Source: a virus | Reading direction: 5' to 3' (one strand) | IMG/VR virus record: IMGVR_UViG_3300012347_000350 | Coordinates: 1,401 to 65,400 of that record | Length of the DNA stretch: 64,000 nucleotides | Shown: positions 18,408-31,596 of the stretch, piece after piece | How the letters are laid out: each line of letters starts with the position of its first letter | How positions within the stretch are numbered: the stretch's first letter is position 1 | Position numbers and translations under genes: made by a program | The notes under the pieces: generated by a model | Databases searched by the model: none | The model's input: the letters and a program-made list of their open reading frames with translations, nothing else | Told to the model about the DNA's origin: nothing

Positions 18408-18698
18408 ATGACTGAACAACCACAAGAAAACGTGATTCCCAGCCGAGTGACTGTCAGCGACATGGAAGCCAAGATCAAGATGACGATTTATCAACGTCTT
18501 GAAGGAACGACCACGACGATCTGCCAGATCACAATGCAGAACGGTTTCACCGTCACAGGGACCAGCGCATGCGTTGATCCGAAGAACTACAACCAGGCCC
18601 TAGGCGAGAAATACGCCTACGAGCAAGCGTTCAACAAACTCTGGGAGCTGGAAGGCTACCTGTTGTTGCAACGTCGTTTCGAGGCAGGTCTGCAATGA
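18408..18698 (+). CDS. N4 Gp49/Sf6 gp66-family protein (possible Acb4-type sponge)
   Basis: TTTICQITMQNGFTVTGTSACVDPKNYNQALGEKYAYEQAFNKLWELEGYLL is the Gp49-family signature. Confidence 0.8.
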   Translation: MTEQPQENVIPSRVTVSDMEAKIKMTIYQRLEGTTTTICQITMQNGFTVTGTSACVDPKNYNQALGEKYAYEQAFNKLWELEGYLLLQRRFEAGLQ

Positions 18699-19180
18699 AA
18701 CAGTTCATCGGCGTCAAACTGATCCATGCCAAACCAATGACACGCGCTGAGTACAACGCTTATCGCGGCTGGGAACTCCCAGCTGACGAGAACGTCTCAG
18801 ATGCAGGATTCCTGGTTGAGTACCTGGATGGCGGCAAGGCCAACACCCCAGACCATGCTGGCTATGTCAGCTGGTCACCAGAAGACGTGTTCAATCGCGC
18901 CTACAAGCCCACCGACGGCATGTCCTTCGGCCTGGCTGTGGAAGCGATGAAGCAAGGCTTCAAGGTGTCCCGTGAGGGCTGGAATGGCAAAGGCATGTTC
19001 CTCTACTACGTCACTGCTGACTACTACCCTGTGAAGATGCCAGCAGCAAAATCGTTCTTTGGTGAGAACAGTCTCGTTCCGTACCGAGACTACATCGCCA
19101 TGAAGACGGCAAACAATGACGTGGTGCCATGGGTGGCCAGTCAATCGGACATCTTGTGCAACGACTGGAGCATCGTATGA
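18695..19180 (+). CDS. Two-domain protein with C-terminal DUF2829 (Tad2-like Thoeris anti-defence) domain
   Basis: MSFGLAVEAMKQGFKVSREGWNGKGMFL...PWVASQSDILCNDW; separate ~70-aa N-terminal domain ending WSPEDVFNRAY. Confidence 0.8.
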   Translation: MKQFIGVKLIHAKPMTRAEYNAYRGWELPADENVSDAGFLVEYLDGGKANTPDHAGYVSWSPEDVFNRAYKPTDGMSFGLAVEAMKQGFKVSREGWNGKGMFLYYVTADYYPVKMPAAKSFFGENSLVPYRDYIAMKTANNDVVPWVASQSDILCNDWSIV

Positions 19181-20393: not shown

Positions 20394-20405
20394 TCACCGC
20401 TGGAC

Positions 20406-20579
20406 ATGGAGACTCTTAGAGCCTTCGGTTACCTGGTAGCCGCTGTTGTGGTCGTCGGTGTACTCGCGTCATTCGGTGCTTTTGTGATGGCAGTTGTCAC
20501 AGCCGTAGGGTTCGCCCTATGCGTGTTGACTGTCATTGCCTTTGTTGCCGCATGCTTCAAAGAGTACTTCGAGAAATAG
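20406..20579 (+). CDS. 57-aa membrane protein
   Basis: Translated by hand (METLRAFGYLVAAVVVVGVLASFG...FKEYFEK); almost entirely hydrophobic; below the track cut-off. Confidence 0.6.
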   Translation: METLRAFGYLVAAVVVVGVLASFGAFVMAVVTAVGFALCVLTVIAFVAACFKEYFEK

Positions 20580-21246
20580 GATCTGGCCTACCCAGGCTAG
20601 GTGCTTTACCCGTTACGTCTGCCATGACGGGTAATAAAATGCAGACCGACTGATCCCCGTAAGGGATCACTATCATGAGTGGGGACTGACACCGGGTTAG
20701 CGCCGGTGTTCACAGCGATTGCTATGAGACTCCTTCCCCACACTGCTTTATGTGAGCAGTCCCCACCCATGATGGTGAAAACCAAACAGACCCTGCGCTC
20801 ATTAACCCTATGCAGCTACAGTAACAGGGCCTGTTTGGCGAATATTGTTCTATCTCCGCTGTTCCGTCGGAGCCTACGCTCAAAAATGAACGGAACCACC
20901 ATCAACCTATTACCCTTGGGGAGTTATGACCCTGACCGTCCGCCCGGAGTAGAGGGGTGCGGCACAAGCTGGATTGTTTGTAATTGCGTCATGAGAAAGC
21001 CTGGAGAGCAGAAGTCCAGCAGAACGGCTTGACAGATCGGAGAGACGATCACCTAACATTAACGAGCAGCGGTAATACACGATCAACCAGCATGAGTCGC
21101 CAAGGTAGTGCACTAACCCTTGGGGCAAGCAATAGTGCAAGAACATTCGTGTGACACTTCGGAGAGACGAAGACCTTCAAGAATGGGGACGAATTATCCG
21201 GCGATAGAGTGGCAACCCAGCCACCCGTCCCCACCCTTGAGTGTTA
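20580..21246 (+). ncRNA. Putative large, highly structured ncRNA (strand tentative)
   Basis: About 665 nt with no credible CDS and more than 12 nested helices, multi-way junctions and a duplicated TCGGAGAGACGA hairpin (see findings). Confidence 0.65.
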
Positions 21247-24200
21247 CTTGACCAGTGCCATACCTGCCTGCACGGTCAAGAGATCATCCAAGACACTCGG
21301 CAGGTTGGCCGCGCCGCCCTTGAACGGTGTGTTGCCCACATGATGAACCAGTGAAGAGTCCAGAACGATGGGCCCTAAATTCACAAATCGGTTCAACAGA
21401 ATCATCCCCAATACCCTGGCAGGACGCTCCCTTGCGGTTTCCATCAACACGCGCTGCACACGGTAGAAGTACTTCATGAACGGGGTAAAGCCCATGTCAT
21501 CGAGGTACTGCAAGTTGCGCTGCATCGGCACGTCGTAGTGCACGAACGCGTTCAACGCCTTCATGACTGCCTTCTCGTGGCTCATCGGCTCCTTGCCTGT
21601 GGTCAGGTGCTCGTACATCGCATAGCGAGCCACGAAGTCTGAGTACTGCGTTGCACGGCTCAAGACCTTGTAAAGCGGCGTGTCGTGGGTCATGTAGACC
21701 ACCTTGCCTGCCTTGCGGATCGGCTCAGGAATCTTGCTGGTCCACTGCTCGAGCTTCTCAGCCAGCTCGCTCTTGTAGCTGTACGGGTCTTCCTGCAGGT
21801 CCACGTCTTCGACGATGGTAGGCATCAAGCCTGCATCGACCAGACGGGTCACTGGGTTGCGCGCAATCGCATCCTTCAAACGAATCACTTCCTGCCCCAA
21901 GCGCTTGCGATCGTTGCCGGCATAGCCACTGTCAAGCTTAAGCTCCAGTTCCATCAAACGCTTGCTGTCATCTTCGTAGGCCATGATGCCGCGCAGTGCT
22001 GTCCACTGACGCTTCCAACCGTCATCGACACCCAGCAACCAGAGCATCGACACGTTGCTGTGGATGTTGCCCAGCAAAGTCACCAAGTTCTTGACGACCA
22101 CGATGTCTTTGACTTCCTTGTAGATCTCCTGCCAGCCGCGCTCACCCTTGACCACTGCAGCGCCCAGACGCTTGGCCCAGTCATCAGCAGCATCCGTGTT
22201 CATGCCACGGTACAAAGCCAACGAGTGGAAGAGCTCGCGCGCAGTCTTCTGCAAGCCATCCAAGTCACCACGCTCCTTGTTCAGGAAATCTCCAGCCGAC
22301 AACTTGCGGTAGCCGAAGATGATGTCCATCGAGTCCTTGCGGATCATGATGGCATCACGGCCCCAGATCTTGCGGATGTCCATACGGGCCTGCTCAGGCA
22401 ACAGGTTCCAGAGCTCACGGTTCTCAGGATCGCTCGAGAGCGGACCGACTTCCGTGTAGGACCATGGGGTCACACTCTTTTCGACCGTGTACTGGTCCAA
22501 CAGTGCGCCGATTGCCTGCTCGTTCAGCTCACGGCCCTTGTGCTTGTCGATGATCGAGCCAGCCAAGGTACCCATCACCTTGTCGAAGCGGTTCTCACGC
22601 TTCAAGGTTGTGTCCTTGGTGTGACCACCCATCAGGTGAGTCCAGTTGACCACGTTACCGTTGTCATCAAAAACCGGGGAGACGTTCACCTGCTTGTTGG
22701 CCGAGGGATCGAAGTTCACATTCGACGCCATGGCAGCCAACTCACCCTGCTTGGCGATGTTCACCGAGTTCTGCAGCGACGCATTCCAGGTTCCCTGGTA
22801 GGTGTTCGTGTTCATGAACCCGTTGTGGATCGTCGTGCCCTTGGCCTTCATGCCTGTCAGCGACATCACTCCCGACACGCGGCGAGTCATTCCACCGTCA
22901 CGGCGGATGTACAGATGCTGCTTGACCCCGTAGGCACCAGACGCATCCGGCACGTTTTTGTCGGACGTCACCGCATCAGCTTTCTCGTAGCCTTGAGCCA
23001 CCAGTCGAGCACCCTCGATCTCGTTGGCCACCTCGATCGTCACGTAGGCATCGTAGATTTCAGGCGTGTAGCCATGGATCATCTGCACTGGGTTGCCGTT
23101 GAAGAGGCGATCCAACGATTCCTGCTCCATGTCCTTGTGCAACTTCAGCATCAGGTCGACCCCGTTGCCATCGGTGCGCACATTCTCTTGCTCCATCACC
23201 GCAGCCACTGCTTGACGCTGAGCCATGGTGCTGTACTTGATCGCATAGAGCGCGACCAGCGTAGCAATCTTGGCTTCTTCCTGAGCGGCTTGCACTTCAG
23301 TGATCTGGCTTGCGTACTGGGTGCCCAGCATGCGCGCAATCACATGGGCGTTCTTCATCAAGAAGGGCACCGTGTTCAGGTCAGTCGCCTTGTAGTAGCC
23401 CAAGCCCTTGGCTTGGTTGATGTGCAAGGTCTTGAGGCCAGAAGACAGTGATGCCTCCACAGTGCTGATCTCTTGGTCCAGCGCCGCATTGCTGCCCACG
23501 ACTTGTGCAATCTGAGCCAACGAGTACTGGCCCAGCAGATGGTGCGCCCCACTTCGCAGCAGCACAGCCGTCAACGCTTTCTTGCTTTCCTTGGTCAGGC
23601 TCTTGCCGGCGTCCTTGAATTCCTTCACCAACACGCTGGCCGTTTGGGCAATGGCATTCTGGCGAAGGTTTTCGCTGTGCTTTGTCATCAACAACAACGC
23701 TTGCACCAGTTCCCCAGGGCCCTTCATTTCACGCATCAAGCCAGCCCAGATACCGTCACGCTCATCGGTTGCGTGGTCACGCAGACTGCGCAGTGCCGTC
23801 ATGACAGCAGCTGCACGACCCGAGGCCGCAACCTTGGCAATGTTGGCACCCCACTTCACTACCCCAGACGAGGAGTTGCGAACGATCGGGCTGTTGGCAA
23901 AGTCGATGACCTTCTGTTTGGCAGCATCGACCACACCCTTGGTCATGTCTTCGACGACATCGCCGTACTTCTGGAACTGGGAGTCACCGGCTTCTGCAGC
24001 AAAGCGGTGCTTGGCTTCGATGTCCATCAAACGATCGATCAACGCTTCCAACTTGGCATCAGCCTTCTGGCCGGCAAACGTGTTTGTCGCCTTGTGGTTG
24101 AAGTAGGCCAAGATCTGTTCGAACCAAGCATTCAAGCGGTCAAACAACGAGCCTTCATTACCCAAGTTCACGCGGCCGGCTTCTGTCTTGAAGTTCAACA

Positions 24201-27200
24201 GAGCCTTGAACTTCTCATTGGCCATGCCAATGGCAGCAAAGCGGGACAAGTAGTCCGAGCGGTCACCGTTGCCAGCTTCCACATCAAACACGAAGTCATA
24301 GTCAGCTTGCGTGAAGCCAGCATTGACAAAGTCTTGTGCTGTCAGCGTAGCCTTGGCTTCCGAAAACAACTTGTAGAGCTCGCGGTAAGCGGGCTTGGTG
24401 GTGATATCAGTGATGCTGAGTGCCGTAGCCACAGTGGCTTCGACCTGTTCCATCACGAACACTTCCTGTGCACTGGCAGCAAAGCCAGAGTTCACGAGCT
24501 TCGAGGCCAACACGGCTTGGCCAGATGCCAACACCTTGGACCATGCGTCGATCGGTGTAGCAGCAACCGTTGAGACCATGGCCGACTTCAGTGCACCCAT
24601 GGGACCGTAGACGGCTTGGACCATGCCAGTTAGTAGGTTGCTCAGGTGGCTTTGGAAGGCAGCGCTCACGTTGCCCTTGTCCAGCGCGCGGAACACCTGA
24701 GCGGTGCTGTACGGTGACCCGGGGTTCGTTGCTTGGCTTGCCTGGGACAGGTTCAGGCTGGTTGCCTTGGCATTCTGCTGAGCCGCATCGGCAAAGAGAC
24801 CCGACACGTTGCCCACCAGCACCGACAGACCACTGTTCAGGTTCTCATCTGGCTTCTTGTAGAGCATGCCCATCAGTGTGGAGATGAACTTCTCCATGCC
24901 GGTGATCAAGGCATTGCCACGGGTCTTGGACTCAAACGTGATCTGGGTCAACACTTCCTTCTGGAAGGCCAAGTTGCTCATGCCCCAAGCCACGAACTCT
25001 TGCACATCCACCAGTGCTGCATCGAACTGGGTCAGCCCGTTGGCAGCCGCAAACTCCTTGGCCTTGGCCATCAGCGATTCCAACTCAGCTACCAGCTTCT
25101 TGCCCTCGGCCGACGGATCAGTAATCGTCTTGGCTACGGCAGCATGGATCAGCTCATGCAACAACGTTTCTGCAGTCAAGCCAGAGTTCTTGAACTCAGG
25201 GCTCAACACGTAGATCGACTCGGCATTGCCCTTGACCACGTACCAGCCGCGCGATGGGGTCTTGGCCTTCTCGAGCACCTGATCGTCAGTGGTTCGCGCA
25301 GTCACGTACTGGATCGGCAAATCGGCTGAGACCACACGGCTCACCAGCTGGAGCAGCTTGCGGTTGACTGGGTTCAAGCGCCCTGCTGCAGACAGCAACT
25401 CAATGACCTGTTTGGCCGTAGCATTCGGGTTGACCCTGAAGAAATCCACCAGGTCACGGTCACTTGGGATCGCTGGCTTGCCAAGCTCACCCAGAGTGCT
25501 GCCACCCACGGTCTTATCTTGCTCCACTGCCACCGGTTCGGCTTTGACGGACGTCTCTGCCAAGGCCTTGTTCAGGCGCTCAGCAGCCGCAATCAACGCT
25601 GGGTTGACCGCAGATACCTGCAGGTGGTTTTGGAGGGCTTCCTGGGCGTTCTGGCGGTCCTGATCCGTCACGCGGTACTCACCGCCTTCCCAGGTGTACT
25701 GGTCGATGGCTGTCATCTGAGCCAAAGTCTCCAAGCGCACTTTGTTCGCATCGAATTGGGCCTGGAAAGCCAAGTCCAACACCACCGATGCCAGCTTCTC
25801 GTCAGAAACGCTCTTGCGCAGCGCGTAGGGCAGCTGTGCACGCAACGCTTGCTTGATGCCGGCCAGCGCCTGGGGTGACAACTCACCTGCATCGAGCATC
25901 TTGATCGTGTTCTCGACTGCACGCACCAGCATCTGGTAGCTCTCAGTGGCAGGAGAGAACTTCAACATGGCTTCCCATGTCGACTTGTTGATGGCCTTGG
26001 CTGTCTTCTCCACATTGCCCACGCCGTTGGCGGCTTCGTCGTGCACGTTCAGCGTTTCGGTCCCGATCAGGGACATGTGCATGATGAAACTGTCCAGCGA
26101 GTGCATGAAGTACGGCAAGCCAGCCACACCGGGGCTGCGTTCGCTCTGAGTCACTGCTTGGCCGTTCATGGTCGACACGGGGTAGCCGTTCTTCTTCGGA
26201 ATGCGCTTGCCCAACTGAATCTTCACGCGGTTGCTGGTCTCGTCGCTCGTGGCCGGATTGGTCTTGGCCATGTACAAGCCCGCATCCAACTGGTTGTCGT
26301 CCACGGTGTAGGCCGTGTTGGCAAACGGGAGGATCGCTTGGACCTTCTCACGCAGCGCCTTCTCTTGAGCCACGGTCATGTTGTGGATCGGTACCTTCTT
26401 GCCGTCACGTTCAACCGTGTCAATCTCGCCAGCGTCAATCAAGCGCTGGATCTCATTGGCCCGCAGGTCTTGGTAGATCGCGTTGTAGATCTCGAACGAT
26501 CCTTGAATCGTGCGGTTGATCTCGTTGCGGCGGTTCAGGTACGTCTCGAAGTAGCCCTTCATGGTCTCTTCGACTCGTGAACCGATTTGCTCGTAGAACT
26601 TCTCAGCCAGCTTCTGGCGGTCGGCCTTGGTGAAAGGACGTGCCATCAACGCTTCGATCGAAGTGTTCTCAGACATCTGGGTGCCGAGCAACGTGTTCAA
26701 GCCACGGATCAAGTCCACGCGGCTGGTCTTCTTGTCTTGGCCAGTGGCCACCGCTTCGATGCGGTCGATCACTTGCTGGACGAAAGCTTCCTGCATGCTG
26801 CGCACCGAACCATCAATGGATGAACCAAAGATGAAAGCGGTCAGCGGCGTCTTGGCTAGTTTGCGACCGTCGGAGGTGACTTTCTCGTTCTTGTCGATCA
26901 ACTCCTTGGTGAAAACGCTGATTGCCGCAAAATCTTTAGTCACGGCAATGCCGTTCAGGATCTGGTAGGCCAAGTCTTCGTACAGGTCCAGGCTGGTTGC
27001 GCGCTCGTACCAGTGGTTGTAGTTGACGACGCCGTCATCACCTTTGTACATGCCGCCACGGTTCAGTCGAGCAAAGAGCTCCTTGACCGTCTCTGCAGCA
27101 CCCAAAGCCAACTGGGTCAGGATCGGGCCGTTGGTCTTGCCGTCCACACCTACCAGCATGTGCACGGTGACTTCACCAACATCAGCTCCTCCTGCGCGCT

Positions 27201-30200
27201 GAGCTTGGGCATTGAGCACCTTGCCGTATGCCACCAGGGCTTGCAGTGTTTGCATGCCTTCACGGCCGGCAGCAAACTCAGCCACTTCCTGCTTCTGGCC
27301 ACCGGTCAAAGCATCTGCCTTGCCGGCTTCGATGGCAGTAGCCACGGCCATGGCCAACTTCTTGATGGCACCGTCGTTCTCGGCCATGCGATCGTTGAAG
27401 ATCTGCAGCGTGGCTTCGTTGTTCTGCTGGTCAATCTTGACCCCAAACGCTTGAGCCACAGAGATCTCGAAGCGGTTCATCGCCTTGGCATCGCTCAAGT
27501 CCAGCTTTGTCGCCCACTCAGGACGGTAGAACATGAAGCGGTGAATCTTGCTGCCCTGCAGGTTCATGTCCTGTGTAGCCACACCGACGCGGAAGTTCCG
27601 CCACACCTCGTAGGTTGCGTAGAACGCTTGCTCGAGTTTGTTGGGGCTGTTCTTCTCGGCGTCTTGAACCAAGTTCTTCATGGCTTCAAGCTGAGTCTCT
27701 AAGCCGTCGTTCTTGGCTTGCATGGTCAGTCGGTTTTCCAACTGCACTTTTGACTCGTCGTACTCTTTCCAGCCGGCGGCTTGCAGGATCACGGTGTCAC
27801 CCAGCACCTGCAGCGCATTCCACATCGATGGGATGATGCGGTGCGGTACCTGCTGGGCTTCGTCAAGAATCTTGCGTTGCTGTTCGGTGATGTTCTGACC
27901 GGTCTTCTTGGCCATGGCTTGGCTGAAGCGGCGAGGTGCCCACGATGCAAAGGTAGGGGAAGCCTCTGAGCTAAACATGCGGGTCAACACCCCGCGCGCG
28001 CCCACGCTTGTGTCTTTGATCTCTTTGTTCGAGCCATCGAGCTTCAAGTTGCTGCGCACCACACGCACGTACTCAAACTGCGAATTTGGGTTGCCTGCAT
28101 TGAAGCCATCAATGAAGTCATTCATCTCGGCACCGGTGAAGTTCACGGTGTCAATCAGATTTTGTGAAGCCAAGAGCACCACGCCGTGCAGACCAAACGC
28201 CGTTTCCAGCTTGGCCATGTAGTTGGCTTCTGCCTTGCTGTTGGCACGCAGGCCCAAGGCGTCGACGATGTACTTGCCGATGTTGGCAGCCGCGCGGTCT
28301 TGGGTAGTGGCCAGATCCGACAAGGCCTTCATGCCTTCGCCCGTCACCGACACATCCATGGTCTCGCGCAGGCCGTGCATCTTCAGGATCGCTTCGGAGT
28401 CCTTGAGCGCCGAGCCATTGACGGCCTCGCTCATGTAGTTGTAGGCACCGTAGGCAATGGCGGTCACCAGGTTCTCATCGACCTTGCCGTCTGCACCCAG
28501 GAAGTCCTGGATCGGGTCTTCAAACAGGAAGTCTTCACGCGGGCCCTTGCCAGACTTGACATTGGCCAAGCCACCCTTGATCAGCTGCTCGCGGATGACC
28601 GGTGCCCACTGGTTGGCAAACTTCTGGAAGTTGTTGAGCGACCCGATCTCTTCATCGGTCAAGGACTCGGCGAAGAAGTCGGTCGGCACCACAGTGCCGG
28701 CGTTCCACAGGCTCAACAAGTTGTTGACCGAAACCAACGGACGATCCTTGGCGATGTCCGCATCTTTTTCGATGCGCTTCTTGGTCTGGGTCAGGAATGC
28801 CACAGCCTTGTTGAGCGTGCGGTACACAGAGCCCAGCACAGTGCCGGCAGGCAACACATCATCAGACGACTTGTCCTGGAAAACCGACAGGCCTTGAGTG
28901 CTCTTGGCATCTTCAAGTGCCGCTTCGGGCACGTCTGCGACTGCCGTGTCTGCAGCACTCTCTTCAGAAACTACTTCAGGTGTGCTAGTCTTCTCAGTAG
29001 ACTGAGTTTCAACTGTAGTTGTCTGAGTTGACTCAGCTTCTGCAGTGTTCGCAGAAGAGCCGGAGGCTACTCCATCAGCTTCACTGGCTTGACTTGCAGC
29101 ACTTGCGTCGCCGCTCTGAACATCTGACTCTGCGGTTCCCTGCTCACTGCCTGCAGTTCGCGCATCGGCACTTGCTTCTGCCGAGGACGCTGTGGATTGT
29201 TCCGAGCTTGCTTGGTTCCCCTGGGCGGGTGATACGTTCTTGACATCGTTTCCACCAAAGACAAAGTTGTTGGCAGCGTCAAGCTCTGCATAGGCAGCGC
29301 TCAACGCATCTGCTTCAGTTCGGATCTGGGTTGGCAACTTGGCTGATGCAGCAGTGATGTTCAATCCGCCGTTCTTCACCCGAGCTTCGTCCGTGATCCA
29401 AGCCCCCTCTTTCATGATCCAGCCAGCCTCAGTTTTGATGAGGCGACGGTTCTTGCCATCCTGTTTGGTTGCCGTATAGGCTTCATCCACCAGCGTGGCT
29501 TTTTGTTCGTGGTCATTCTTGAACTTGCTCAAGAGACCCAGCAAATTGGCAGCGGTCTTGACATCCTTGTTGCCAAACGCTGCATTCAACTGCTCGCGGT
29601 AGTTGGCAATGCCAAGCATCTGCGAGATGTTCTTTTTCTTGTCCCCAGCACGACCCAGGAAGATGTCCTTGCTGACATCGCCCAGCTTCAACAAGCTGTT
29701 TTCCTGTGCGCGCGCAACTGAGAACTCACGGAAGTACGTGCGCTGGGCATCGCTCAATCCGTTCGATGCGTCATCGGCCAAGGCCTGTGCAGTCTGAGCA
29801 CTCAAGCGCTCAGGAATCGCCATCGACAAGTTGATGATCTTGGTGGCTGCAGCCTGTGAAGCCACAGGATCAGCTGCCGTGATGTTCTTGGCTTCGGTTT
29901 CCACATCGACGGACGTCGACTTCACGTCCTTGTTGAACAACGACACGGCATCCTTGGCCGTGACGATCTGGTTCTCCAAATCGGTGATTTCAACCAAGCG
30001 GCTGGCCAGTGTTTCCTCAGCTGCCTTCGCATCGAAGCGCTCGAGCTTGCCCTGCACTCCTGAGATCCACGCATTGATGGCAGCAACCTGTGCGGCATCC
30101 GTGGTGTCGGCGTTTGACAGGGCTTCTTGGGCCTGAGCCAGGTCAGCTTCCAGACCGTCTTTCGTGATTCGACCCAGGCTGCTCTTCAAAGCTTGAACGC

Positions 30201-31596
30201 GGGACTCTGCGTTGGCCACGATCTGTGCGGCCTGCTCAAAAGCGGCTTGTTTCTGCTCGTCCGTCTTGCCTTCTTGTGCGGCATGCGCTTGCAGGCCCTG
30301 CACGGCCAGGCCGGGGTTGTAGGTTGCGCTGTTGGGATCAACCAGTGCCGACACATCGCCGGACTTGGCCACGGCCTGCAGCGTTTGCGTGTCGGTGGCT
30401 TCTTTTTCAGTAGCCACGGCCAGTTTCTTGAGCGATTCCGGCATCGAGGTGTTCAAACCTTGAATGCCACCGCCCAGAATGCCGCCCATGGCAGCACCTT
30501 GACCAGCCGCTGAGCCCACACCCTCTGCCAGTGACTGCGCAGGGTTGATTTGCTGGACACCTAGGTTGGCCAAGGCCTGGCCGGAGCCTTCCTCCAAGCC
30601 TTCTTGCGTGCCTTCAGCAGCAAACACCTTGGGCACCATGCCAATGCTGGCCTTGCCCTTGCCAACGAGCGCTTTTTCCAGTGCCGCACCGCCCGGGACA
30701 AGCTTGGTGCTGACCAACGAGGTACCGGCCGCTGCCAAAGTAGCTTGCGTGGCGAGCTCGGAGGCGATCTGTTGCTTGGCTTGAGCAGCAGGCATCGTCA
30801 TGGCGAGCTCAAGGTACTGAGGGTTCTGTTCCCACAGCGCATCAGGCAAAGCCATGAGGCGTTCCATGGTGTCTGAGCCAACGTCCACACCTTGCAGGGC
30901 AGCACCGGTAGCCACAGCCCCTGCAGTGGCACTCTTTTCAAGAGCCATCTCACCCAAGCGCGTTGCCGCAACCTTCGGAGCGACCTTGGCAGCCGTCGTT
31001 GCAGCGAGTTCTACCCCACGGCCGACCTTGCCGGCCACGCCCAGCTGCGCGGCTTGTTGAGCCACGAACTCAGGGATGCTGCCGGGGTCTTTCAAGGACT
31101 CCCAGAAGGACACACCAAACTCGGCAGCAATGCGTGCCGCTGTTCCTGCAGCGCCGCCGCCTACCGCTTCGCTCGCGGCGTCGCCTGCATCCTTGGCAGC
31201 AAGGTTTCGTTCTTGTGTCTTGTACTGCGAGAGTGCTGATTTCAGCTTTTCACGCTCGTTCGACATGGCCGAGATCTTCTGTGTCTCGGGGCCATAGAAA
31301 TTGCCGGTCGTAGCCTTGTCATAAGCCATGGCCGGAACCTTGGCCAAGCTGTCCAGACCCTGGAGAGCCGACAAACCAATGTCCTTGGCATCTTCAAAGA
31401 GGGTCGAGCCTTGGCGGCTTTTCCAATACAGGTCGTCATTGCGGGGATTGGTGCGAATCAGGTCTTTGAGGTGCGCAATCTTGGCATCACTGGCCGCTTG
31501 CAGTGCGTCGTATTTCTTCGACAGCCCGCGCTGGGCGTCTGCTTCCATCTCTTGAGTGGAGGCGTCATTGAAAAAATCACGGGAAATGTCAGCCAT
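21244..31596 (-). CDS. Virion-encapsidated RNA polymerase (N4 gp50-like vRNAP)
   Basis: 3450 aa; motif A VDGKTNG, motif B RKLAKTPLTAFIFG, motif C NVHDE; no Cys seen on read-through; N4 synteny. Confidence 0.95.
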   Translation of the reverse strand: MADISRDFFNDASTQEMEADAQRGLSKKYDALQAASDAKIAHLKDLIRTNPRNDDLYWKSRQGSTLFEDAKDIGLSALQGLDSLAKVPAMAYDKATTGNFYGPETQKISAMSNEREKLKSALSQYKTQERNLAAKDAGDAASEAVGGGAAGTAARIAAEFGVSFWESLKDPGSIPEFVAQQAAQLGVAGKVGRGVELAATTAAKVAPKVAATRLGEMALEKSATAGAVATGAALQGVDVGSDTMERLMALPDALWEQNPQYLELAMTMPAAQAKQQIASELATQATLAAAGTSLVSTKLVPGGAALEKALVGKGKASIGMVPKVFAAEGTQEGLEEGSGQALANLGVQQINPAQSLAEGVGSAAGQGAAMGGILGGGIQGLNTSMPESLKKLAVATEKEATDTQTLQAVAKSGDVSALVDPNSATYNPGLAVQGLQAHAAQEGKTDEQKQAAFEQAAQIVANAESRVQALKSSLGRITKDGLEADLAQAQEALSNADTTDAAQVAAINAWISGVQGKLERFDAKAAEETLASRLVEITDLENQIVTAKDAVSLFNKDVKSTSVDVETEAKNITAADPVASQAAATKIINLSMAIPERLSAQTAQALADDASNGLSDAQRTYFREFSVARAQENSLLKLGDVSKDIFLGRAGDKKKNISQMLGIANYREQLNAAFGNKDVKTAANLLGLLSKFKNDHEQKATLVDEAYTATKQDGKNRRLIKTEAGWIMKEGAWITDEARVKNGGLNITAASAKLPTQIRTEADALSAAYAELDAANNFVFGGNDVKNVSPAQGNQASSEQSTASSAEASADARTAGSEQGTAESDVQSGDASAASQASEADGVASGSSANTAEAESTQTTTVETQSTEKTSTPEVVSEESAADTAVADVPEAALEDAKSTQGLSVFQDKSSDDVLPAGTVLGSVYRTLNKAVAFLTQTKKRIEKDADIAKDRPLVSVNNLLSLWNAGTVVPTDFFAESLTDEEIGSLNNFQKFANQWAPVIREQLIKGGLANVKSGKGPREDFLFEDPIQDFLGADGKVDENLVTAIAYGAYNYMSEAVNGSALKDSEAILKMHGLRETMDVSVTGEGMKALSDLATTQDRAAANIGKYIVDALGLRANSKAEANYMAKLETAFGLHGVVLLASQNLIDTVNFTGAEMNDFIDGFNAGNPNSQFEYVRVVRSNLKLDGSNKEIKDTSVGARGVLTRMFSSEASPTFASWAPRRFSQAMAKKTGQNITEQQRKILDEAQQVPHRIIPSMWNALQVLGDTVILQAAGWKEYDESKVQLENRLTMQAKNDGLETQLEAMKNLVQDAEKNSPNKLEQAFYATYEVWRNFRVGVATQDMNLQGSKIHRFMFYRPEWATKLDLSDAKAMNRFEISVAQAFGVKIDQQNNEATLQIFNDRMAENDGAIKKLAMAVATAIEAGKADALTGGQKQEVAEFAAGREGMQTLQALVAYGKVLNAQAQRAGGADVGEVTVHMLVGVDGKTNGPILTQLALGAAETVKELFARLNRGGMYKGDDGVVNYNHWYERATSLDLYEDLAYQILNGIAVTKDFAAISVFTKELIDKNEKVTSDGRKLAKTPLTAFIFGSSIDGSVRSMQEAFVQQVIDRIEAVATGQDKKTSRVDLIRGLNTLLGTQMSENTSIEALMARPFTKADRQKLAEKFYEQIGSRVEETMKGYFETYLNRRNEINRTIQGSFEIYNAIYQDLRANEIQRLIDAGEIDTVERDGKKVPIHNMTVAQEKALREKVQAILPFANTAYTVDDNQLDAGLYMAKTNPATSDETSNRVKIQLGKRIPKKNGYPVSTMNGQAVTQSERSPGVAGLPYFMHSLDSFIMHMSLIGTETLNVHDEAANGVGNVEKTAKAINKSTWEAMLKFSPATESYQMLVRAVENTIKMLDAGELSPQALAGIKQALRAQLPYALRKSVSDEKLASVVLDLAFQAQFDANKVRLETLAQMTAIDQYTWEGGEYRVTDQDRQNAQEALQNHLQVSAVNPALIAAAERLNKALAETSVKAEPVAVEQDKTVGGSTLGELGKPAIPSDRDLVDFFRVNPNATAKQVIELLSAAGRLNPVNRKLLQLVSRVVSADLPIQYVTARTTDDQVLEKAKTPSRGWYVVKGNAESIYVLSPEFKNSGLTAETLLHELIHAAVAKTITDPSAEGKKLVAELESLMAKAKEFAAANGLTQFDAALVDVQEFVAWGMSNLAFQKEVLTQITFESKTRGNALITGMEKFISTLMGMLYKKPDENLNSGLSVLVGNVSGLFADAAQQNAKATSLNLSQASQATNPGSPYSTAQVFRALDKGNVSAAFQSHLSNLLTGMVQAVYGPMGALKSAMVSTVAATPIDAWSKVLASGQAVLASKLVNSGFAASAQEVFVMEQVEATVATALSITDITTKPAYRELYKLFSEAKATLTAQDFVNAGFTQADYDFVFDVEAGNGDRSDYLSRFAAIGMANEKFKALLNFKTEAGRVNLGNEGSLFDRLNAWFEQILAYFNHKATNTFAGQKADAKLEALIDRLMDIEAKHRFAAEAGDSQFQKYGDVVEDMTKGVVDAAKQKVIDFANSPIVRNSSSGVVKWGANIAKVAASGRAAAVMTALRSLRDHATDERDGIWAGLMREMKGPGELVQALLLMTKHSENLRQNAIAQTASVLVKEFKDAGKSLTKESKKALTAVLLRSGAHHLLGQYSLAQIAQVVGSNAALDQEISTVEASLSSGLKTLHINQAKGLGYYKATDLNTVPFLMKNAHVIARMLGTQYASQITEVQAAQEEAKIATLVALYAIKYSTMAQRQAVAAVMEQENVRTDGNGVDLMLKLHKDMEQESLDRLFNGNPVQMIHGYTPEIYDAYVTIEVANEIEGARLVAQGYEKADAVTSDKNVPDASGAYGVKQHLYIRRDGGMTRRVSGVMSLTGMKAKGTTIHNGFMNTNTYQGTWNASLQNSVNIAKQGELAAMASNVNFDPSANKQVNVSPVFDDNGNVVNWTHLMGGHTKDTTLKRENRFDKVMGTLAGSIIDKHKGRELNEQAIGALLDQYTVEKSVTPWSYTEVGPLSSDPENRELWNLLPEQARMDIRKIWGRDAIMIRKDSMDIIFGYRKLSAGDFLNKERGDLDGLQKTARELFHSLALYRGMNTDAADDWAKRLGAAVVKGERGWQEIYKEVKDIVVVKNLVTLLGNIHSNVSMLWLLGVDDGWKRQWTALRGIMAYEDDSKRLMELELKLDSGYAGNDRKRLGQEVIRLKDAIARNPVTRLVDAGLMPTIVEDVDLQEDPYSYKSELAEKLEQWTSKIPEPIRKAGKVVYMTHDTPLYKVLSRATQYSDFVARYAMYEHLTTGKEPMSHEKAVMKALNAFVHYDVPMQRNLQYLDDMGFTPFMKYFYRVQRVLMETARERPARVLGMILLNRFVNLGPIVLDSSLVHHVGNTPFKGGAANLPSVLDDLLTVQAGMALVK

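Follow-up and report, generated by a model that had tools for sequence, protein, structure and literature searches.

The locus lies in a 71.5-kb IMG/VR phage contig of the N4 type that is 99% complete, of which a stretch of 64,000 nucleotides, called the window below, was analysed. At the end of its replication operon a rightward series of genes (Table 1) converges on the vRNAP gene (3450 aa, − strand, 21244-31596), and the tail of this operon forms a gap of 665 bases between the stop of a 57-aa membrane ORF (20579) and the vRNAP stop codon (21244-46). At 18408-19180, 1.4 kb 5′ of the RNA locus, are genes for a Gp49/66-family protein and a Tad2-like (Thoeris anti-defence) protein, and the operon end therefore looks like an accessory or anti-defence zone. 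Sequence words from the region were found mainly in freshwater metagenomes. When the gap was compared with GenBank phages by blastn no match was obtained, and the wider 12-kb region had only short primase segments in common with them. A consensus scan called no promoter, including none of the sigma-70-like type, and no terminator inside the gap; its single terminator call lay upstream, inside the 57-aa ORF. ARAGORN found no tRNA in the 64-kb window or in the loci L002-L006, and reverse transcriptase (PF00078) was absent from the genome in a search whose positive controls responded.

Table 1. Features of the operon end and of the gap before the vRNAP gene (window positions)
Feature	Position	Strand or direction	Description
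AAA_24-domain ATPase gene		rightward	Sak4-like position in LUZ7
Gene without Pfam match		rightward	at LUZ7 ssb position
Genes for Gp49/66-family protein, Tad2-like protein and RuvC-like protein; two small ORFs		rightward	operon genes
Hairpin	20581..20602	+	2 nt past 57-aa ORF stop; in MFE and centroid fold; only in closest relatives
Hairpin and conserved leader	20608..20650	+	hairpin 20608-32; leader AAUAAAAUGCAGACCGAC 20633-50
Hairpin GAUCCC-CGUAA-GGGAUC	20652..20668	+	conserved loop
Module A	20668..20777	+	~20-bp outer helix 20668-88/20757-77 around three hairpins
117-codon ORF	20679..21032	+	not a gene
A2	20782..20838	+	optional long hairpin; found in window, L002, L016, L022
Module B	20840..20907	+	optional; hairpin GUUCCGU/ACGGAAC; 3′ end CACCAUCAACC
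Core RNA	20909..21057	+	AUUACCC, P1, H-type pseudoknot, hairpin S, two-hairpin unit 1
Two-hairpin unit 1	20997..21053	+	Ha, Hb, GACA linker, stem-GAGAGA-stem, ACC tail
Two-hairpin unit 2	21077..21175	+	Ha2 encloses module D; GACA, stem-GAGAGA-stem, ACC tail
Long terminal hairpin	21183..21234	not assigned	9 nt from vRNAP stop codon (21244-46, −)

An initial sequence-only reading had described the region as ORF-poor and densely folded, and this description held. No credible gene was found, and the + strand of 20580-21246 folded to −239 kcal/mol compared with −201 ± 7 kcal/mol for dinucleotide shuffles (z −5.4), while the − strand reached −261 kcal/mol (z −4.3); on either strand none of 20 shuffles attained the native folding energy. 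The repeats seen by eye, TCGGAGAGACGA at 21037 and 21159 and ACCCTTGGGG at 20912 and 21116, were confirmed. The strand, which that reading had left tentative, could be settled as + because of the counts of G-U and A-C pairs, the UUCG and GNRA loop caps and a covarying pseudoknot, and this is also the direction of the upstream operon. G-U outnumbered A-C in each module when relatives were compared, with ratios of 10:1 for module B, 4:1 for A2, 13:1 for module D and 15:4 for the terminal hairpin. These analyses show that the gap holds a structured, conserved, non-coding RNA on the + strand.

A protein product, either the 117 aa encoded by ORF 20679-21032 or a short peptide inside the core, is extremely unlikely to be what the locus makes. 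The frame is open in the window and in L002, a 99% relative, and a 13-codon ATG frame falls within the most conserved block. However, the ORF is unbroken in these two sequences only and matches no Pfam family; it is disrupted in L003 by the replacement of a module and elsewhere by frame-shifting 1-nt indels (L020, L023, L024, L027 and L145). The internal ATG of the core reads ACG, GAG or GTG in L004, L016, L022 and L013, and the core is judged not to be coding because of this loss together with 1-nt indels at two places.

Related loci were collected from IMG/VR and metagenomes with the vRNAP C-terminus and with exact-pattern scans. In every N4-like relative the corresponding position was occupied by 200-800 nt of non-coding sequence. 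Among the freshwater N4-like relatives, islands within the gap, the core among them, were 86-99% identical at the DNA level (blastn) compared with 67-76% for the adjacent end of the vRNAP gene, meaning that parts of the gap are better conserved than the neighbouring coding sequence; in more distant relatives the vRNAP C-terminus was 54-60% identical at the protein level. The islands of identity correspond to modules, namely A, the A2 hairpin, B, the core, D with the second hairpin unit, and the terminal hairpin, and the relatives possessed differing subsets of these plus further modules. The minimal locus (L018) consisted of the core only, in ~200 nt, with the core beginning 4 nt past the stop codon. 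L145 and L021 combined module A with the core in ~330 nt, and in L021 the core was followed by a canonical + strand intrinsic terminator at the place of the window's terminal hairpin. L002 differed from the window by exactly one unit, the stretch 21055-21150 between both GAGAGA hairpins, which was precisely missing in L003 as well. The order of the modules was altered in L005 and G002. This comparison shows the locus to be a chain of separately folding, exchangeable modules, and such gain and loss argues, at the level of sequence, against one obligate 665-nt fold. The part present in all relatives was the pseudoknotted core of ~150 nt.

Two of the related versions contained additional elements. 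In the 97% relative L003, ~290 nt (L003:2470-2730, − strand) took the place of the window's 20780-20908 and included two GGTTCGATTCC motifs that resemble T-arms; neither ARAGORN nor the Rfam tRNA model made a call in this replacement segment. In L016 a gene of ~140 aa (L016:7899-8339, − strand) encoding an H-NS-like protein (Histone_HNS C-terminal domain, WSGRGRKPKW) separated the RNA locus from the small membrane ORF. This gene was absent from the window, and homologues were found in the more distant N4-like relatives L018, L020, L021, L022, L024 and L025.

The same intergenic region from the relatives displayed covariation in several of the helices that had been read by eye. Compensatory changes were present in helices 20606-15/20625-34 and 20651-57/20663-69, in the ~20-bp helix (20668-88/20757-77) and in 20689-95/20703-09, as well as in both GAGAGA hairpins and the module D hairpin 21100-05/21118-23. 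Hairpin Hb (21001-05/21015-19) and helix Ha, within the proposed helix 20997-21005/21015-30, also had compensatory changes. Helices 20743-46/20756-59, 20782-838 and 20861-67/20890-96 (module B) and most of the 3′ hairpin were too invariant to test. Other pairings proposed from sequence alone did not survive the comparison. Unrelated hairpins take the place of the segment forming 20924-30/20988-94; instead of 21109-15/21133-39 the relatives favour GCAU 21091-94 with GUGC 21134-37. Of the two long-range interactions, CCAAGG at 21100 with CCTTGG at 20914 was displaced by a local, covarying pairing of CCAAGG, and either partner of 20849/21199 was found without the other in relatives.

Upstream of the core, the stem of hairpin 20608-32 differed in sequence in L016, L020, L021 and L022 but kept its pairing, and the leader AAUAAAAUGCAGACCGAC was conserved. 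We considered this leader as a repeated promoter motif and ruled it out, since it occurs once in the window. The CGUAA loop of the following hairpin was common to three stem variants (GAUCCC/GGGAUC, GGUGCC/GGCACC and CACACC/GGUGUG), and in L004, L005 and L144 the hairpin was replaced by a two-hairpin unit with a GAAAGA loop. Module A was 81-89% identical at the DNA level in those relatives that align over it. Its inner hairpins lie at 20689-709, ~20711-27 and 20743-59; RNAalifold on eight sequences gave 41 pairs, 13 of them changed on both sides, and recurrent U-G wobbles would read as C-A on the other strand. The unpaired segment GAGACUCCUUCCCC (20726-39) of this module resembles the anti-Shine-Dalgarno end of 16S rRNA (CCUCCUU) and was kept in all module-A relatives bar L021. 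In the RNA-library contig X18 the A2 hairpin was replaced by 'TT', and it was missing or replaced in the relatives not listed for it in Table 1. Module B was 95% identical in L005 and L011, and in L011/G002 it was located ~700 nt downstream of the core rather than upstream.

Eighteen distinct copies of the core scored 162-187 bits with a covariance model, R1, and aligned over ~170 nt. Hairpin P1 (20916-35) is variable, and its caps in the relatives are UUCG, CUUG or GNRA loops. The H-type pseudoknot (20936-62) has the layout X5′-U-Y5′-C-X3′-loop ending GGGG-Y3′ and could be parsed in 18 of 18 copies compared with 0 of 5400 shuffles. Both of its helices were found in four Watson-Crick versions, CUUG/CAAG, CAUG/CAUG, CCG/CGG and CCA/UGG for helix X and CGGC/GCCG, CCGG/CCGG, CCGC/GCGG and CCAG/CUGG for helix Y. 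AC(Y)C at 20912-15 faced the GGGG of the pseudoknot loop with C-G five times, U-G eleven times, U-A once and one mismatch, which tentatively suggests a third core helix. In hairpin S (20971-85) variation was confined to the four-base loop. RNAalifold proposed a long-range helix GCUGGAUU/AGUCCAGC, both strands of which are invariant in the core copies; we set it aside for the local S and Hb hairpins because the variation in S is restricted to its loop and an A-to-G change in Hb keeps the pairing, although it is possible as an alternative fold of the core.

The full core also occurred in G002 (=L023), L013 and L027, phages in which no vRNAP was found, G002 being the only complete genome of the three (80 kb, terminal repeats). 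On this sequence evidence the core behaves as a cassette that can be transferred between unrelated phages. The same distribution makes antisense control of vRNAP, which the sequence-only reading had suggested as one function, unlikely; moreover, the conserved parts stop before the vRNAP stop codon. In G002, L013 and L027 the core adjoins Cro/XRE-type HTH genes, and in L013 its 3′ end is ~45 nt upstream of the start codon of the next gene.

The 3′ part of the core is a two-hairpin unit. In unit 1, helix Ha (20997-21001 with 21026-30) bears hairpin Hb (21001-19) and is followed by the 5-bp stem with its GAGAGA loop (21035-50). Ha covaried (AAGCC/GGCUU, ACGCC/GGCGU, ACGUC/GACGU), and in the GAGAGA stem of the core four of five pairs covaried while the loop-closing G-C remained constant. 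Unit 2 has the same plan, with Ha2 (21077-82 with 21147-52) enclosing the module D hairpin (21100-23) and a GAGAGA stem at 21157-72; at least two Watson-Crick types were observed in 10 of the 25 pairs of module D. A second model, R2, built exclusively from other phages and prophages without the window's clade, matched unit 1 at 21009-59 (43.5 bits, E 1.9e-9) and unit 2 at 21140-81 (33 bits, E 1.3e-6), and these were its only sites in the whole 71.5-kb genome at E≤0.01. The terminal hairpin behind unit 2 was present in the centroid fold of both strands and conserved in L002, L003, L005, L020 and L145, and a different hairpin occupied its place in L018. We infer that it is the transcript end; the terminator scan did not call it.

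The unit is a ~50-nt RNA motif found widely in phages but missing from Rfam. It comprises a helix of the form A-AC...GU, a GACA(G) linker, a stem of 5-6 bp with a G-C-closed GAGAGA loop, and an ACC tail. In the upstream helix the closing A-U and C-G pairs are conserved, the other three covary freely, and the loop is usually 7-12 nt long. In the whole unit ~17 invariant unpaired or closing nucleotides surround two covarying helices. A loose pattern (GTGACA-N5-GAGAGA-N5-ACC) found at least 120 loci in IMG/VR, nearly all with complementary stems, and a stricter scan located 97 occurrences in genome contigs of bacteria and archaea from many phyla, ~17 of them expected by chance. Altogether the motif was found at >150 phage or prophage loci in many phyla, including Ralstonia phage QkW1, part of its sequence conservation being imposed by the search pattern itself. 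In 86 seed sequences, which were chosen for pairing and are 100% paired by construction, 8 of 10 pairs changed on both sides, with 152 cells compared with 28.5 in shuffles and 32 further pair types. Among 188 unselected pattern matches the GAGAGA stem was entirely Watson-Crick in 129, contained G-U in 26 and A-C in one, an imbalance that indicates selection on RNA of the + strand. Searches of other whole genomes with R2 gave two sites in the relative G003, one in the unrelated 80-kb phage G002 and three in QkW1, all of the latter in one convergent gap; the four genomes searched whole thus each had a single locus with 1-3 units.

In many other phages there is a single unit, placed between co-directional genes with a start codon 10-30 nt further on. 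The downstream genes are heterogeneous and encode a head-tail adaptor, an HU-like protein, a pyrophosphatase, a gp2.5-like SSB, tRNAs and others; the Mu-like head modules have the unit between their capsid-gene region and the adaptor gene. No protein family occurred within ±4 kb of more than ~11% of 158 loci, in a survey whose ORF calling was crude in high-GC contigs. In the unrelated phage contigs L079, L083, L088, L101 and L109 the unit is directly 5′ of tRNA genes or arrays. An R2 match in Bradyrhizobium phage ppBdUSDA122-1 (L148:2503-2552, E 2e-8) falls inside an annotated hypothetical CDS of 660 aa, which means either that a gene contains the motif or that this CDS is over-called. Rfam at E≤10 matched only ordinary tRNAs, in unrelated loci, among twenty motif-bearing loci, and a literature search by motif sequence and keywords found no description of the motif. 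The Aca RNA motifs (PMC13551039) were compared and judged different. A helix closing the unit into a three-way junction was tried and performed no better than shuffled controls, and neither a pseudoknot nor a closing helix was detected in the two-hairpin unit.

Contigs covering 20724-21080 were present in three metatranscriptome runs from two studies, and one metatranscriptome contig was identical to 20930-21080; such contigs may stem from DNA carry-over or from relatives, and carry no information on strand, ends or abundance. The explanation that we rank first, with somewhat less than even confidence, is a stable, multivalent RNA derived from the 3′ UTR that presents its units to a conserved host factor. 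It would be made as a 3′-UTR extension of the operon, as suggested by the spacing of 4 nt between stop codon and core in the minimal relative and by the terminator at the end of L021, and it would probably persist as a stable RNA or RNAs. The tandem units could then offer an unchanging, purine-rich face to a host component that is conserved among bacterial phyla, the locus acting as a multivalent decoy or recruiting RNA and the other modules as interchangeable scaffolding. Because the unpaired purines are invariant in many phyla and no partner gene accompanies them, the simplest view is that the motif works through a universal host component or its own chemistry. Against this explanation, no target or partner of the RNA was found, GGA motifs were not enriched, no promoter or terminator was called in the gap, and the single intercistronic units fit a cis-acting element at least as well as a trans-acting RNA.

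A cis-acting end or processing element of this kind, which would protect or define 3′ ends or insulate converging units and would yield no trans-acting product, ranks second and appears rather unlikely overall. It would account for the location at an operon end opposite a convergent gene, here as in QkW1 (three tandem units in a 625-nt gap), for the core directly after the stop codon in L018 and the terminator behind it in L021, for the placement in Mu-like head modules, and for copies that are low in number and clustered in tandem. However, a 150-nt pseudoknotted core with ~60 nearly invariant positions, paired or unpaired, goes far beyond what a stabiliser needs, and the core transfers between unrelated phages as a cassette. 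The units are without a U-tract, and since a start codon follows within 10-30 nt in ~40% of loci they are not transcript ends there; nor was a terminator called in the gap, as opposed to the 57-aa ORF. We consider it improbable, and rank it third, that the unit is instead a processing signal, namely a new small self-cleaving ribozyme or an acceptor-stem-like substrate of RNase P with a G-C closing pair followed by A and CC, with tandem units excising the modules between them. The ring of ~17 invariant nucleotides would suit such a role, as would a scattered, gene-independent distribution over many phyla like that of hammerhead and twister ribozymes, the several copies directly 5′ of tRNA genes, and a stem-C-A-C-C that can be likened to a tRNA 3′ end. 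Yet no Rfam ribozyme or tRNA model matched, the unit has no detected pseudoknot or closing helix, and only 40% of copies have an A after ACC. The window's clade lacks G-C as the first stem pair, and 6 of 18 copies have ACU or AUU as their tail; a 5-bp stem is also short for RNase P. A bolder version of this proposal, to which we give slightly less credence still, is that the unit belongs to a novel class of small elements for RNA processing, which cleave themselves or guide a universal RNase and so cut phage operon transcripts; tandem units, here and in QkW1, would excise the structured modules between them as stable RNAs, possibly circularised, with an effect on the host.

The sequence-only reading had favoured an RNA of the GOLLD/ROOL class or a new large RNA. 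A structured, conserved non-coding RNA outside Rfam was borne out, but neither the assignment to GOLLD or ROOL nor a single RNA of ~665 nt was; the decoy or scaffold role that it also put forward is possible. One giant ornate RNA of that class, ~650 nt long with all domains needed, is very unlikely in spite of the size, helix density and phage origin, of optional domains that are closed stem-loops as in large RNAs, and of a possible link between modules by UGAUGGUG (20768-75) and CACCAUCA (20897-904). Relatives make do with versions of 200 nt (L018) or ~330 nt (L145, L021), L005 and G002 have a different module order, and UGAUGGUG is already taken by the covarying outer helix of module A. Rfam returned no match at gathering score in the whole window; at E≤10, 20400-21400 gave a chance miRNA match only and neither GOLLD nor ROOL on either strand, and seven related loci gave nothing, with RF00005 also absent at E≤5. 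The single large RNAs GOLLD (RF01998) and ROOL (RF03087), which form multimeric cages and often adjoin tRNA genes in phages or prophages, share with the locus several hundred nucleotides of dense, conserved phage RNA structure with variable peripheral domains. The locus itself has no tRNA neighbourhood, and its modules, arranged as a chain, are also found apart from one another, down to the 50-nt unit. An element acting as DNA, either a replication origin or N4-type single-stranded hairpin promoters, is more improbable again. GTGACAC, which we take to resemble the SP6 promoter core, was counted in its favour, and the locus is the end of a replication module in a phage group whose RNA polymerases use DNA hairpins (PMC9163698). 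However, the GAGAGA hairpin is found nowhere else in the genome and thus not at the starts of the early or middle operons, the motif is carried by phages and prophages of many sizes and phyla, including G002 and QkW1 in which no vRNAP was found, and the UUCG and GNRA caps, the pseudoknot and the 26:1 ratio of G-U to A-C are signatures of RNA.

Several known phage and bacterial RNAs offer partial parallels. In the N4-like phage LUZ7 the orf69-orf70 gap, ~400 nt and ORF-free, gives rise to abundant RNAs of <250 nt late in infection, and middle promoters are GC-rich hairpins (PMC9163698). LUZ7 sRNA1-3 thus come from the same kind of phage and a similar map position, close to where the rightward operon stops and 0.8 kb short of the vRNAP gene end. 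In contrast to our locus three more small genes follow that region, and R1 and R2 match nothing in it (L026), leaving no detectable homology. Sponge RNAs such as CsrB/RsmZ and TwoAYGGAY (RF01731) likewise consist of repeated hairpins with an invariant loop, variable stems and changing copy number, but the loop of our unit is GAGAGA rather than A(N)GGA, and there was no Rfam match. A CsrA-type sponge was ruled out because GGA is not enriched; to our knowledge, the hosts of the motif also include phyla lacking CsrA. The put RNAs of HK022 and the lambdoid nut boxB comprise one or two hairpins in which 5-bp stems carry purine-rich loops, act via RNA polymerase, a host machine conserved universally, and occur once or twice per genome. 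They may be compared with our unit as small hairpin elements with conserved purine-rich loops, whereas the unit is not tied to operon starts and is in tandem at an operon end here, and middle transcription in N4-like phages uses a phage polymerase. Plant mitochondrial t-elements and phage tRNA-like RNAs share the stem followed by ACC, the frequent adjacency to tRNA genes seen in other phages and the T-arm-like GGTTCGATTCC motifs of the L003 version, but the window has no T-arm or acceptor helix and was negative with ARAGORN and the Rfam tRNA model. The ncRNA arrays of UG27 reverse transcriptases contain structured, pseudoknotted units of ~150 nt, which in phage-borne arrays are gained and lost singly (bioRxiv 10.64898/2026.09.22.753630). 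Unlike these, the genome studied here has no reverse transcriptase and no conserved partner protein is found near the units.

In place of a GOLLD-like guess there is now a defined object, a pseudoknotted phage RNA of ~150 nt with a two-hairpin unit of ~50 nt whose unpaired nucleotides are kept across many bacterial phyla and which is missing from Rfam. Its invariance across phyla without a partner gene suggests a host machine of universal occurrence or chemistry intrinsic to the RNA, and in either case phage RNA biology would gain something new. The locus also shows that a large 'ornate' gap in a phage genome can consist of an array of small RNA modules open to exchange.

The motif can be tested directly at the bench in QkW1, a cultured phage with three units in one gap. 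This gap (L147:2292-2916, PP236382.1 7190-7816) is 625 nt long, ORF-free and flanked by converging genes. The loops of its units are GAAUAGCA, GAGAGA and GAAAGA, and it also contains a hairpin with a GGAUCAGC loop like one in G002.
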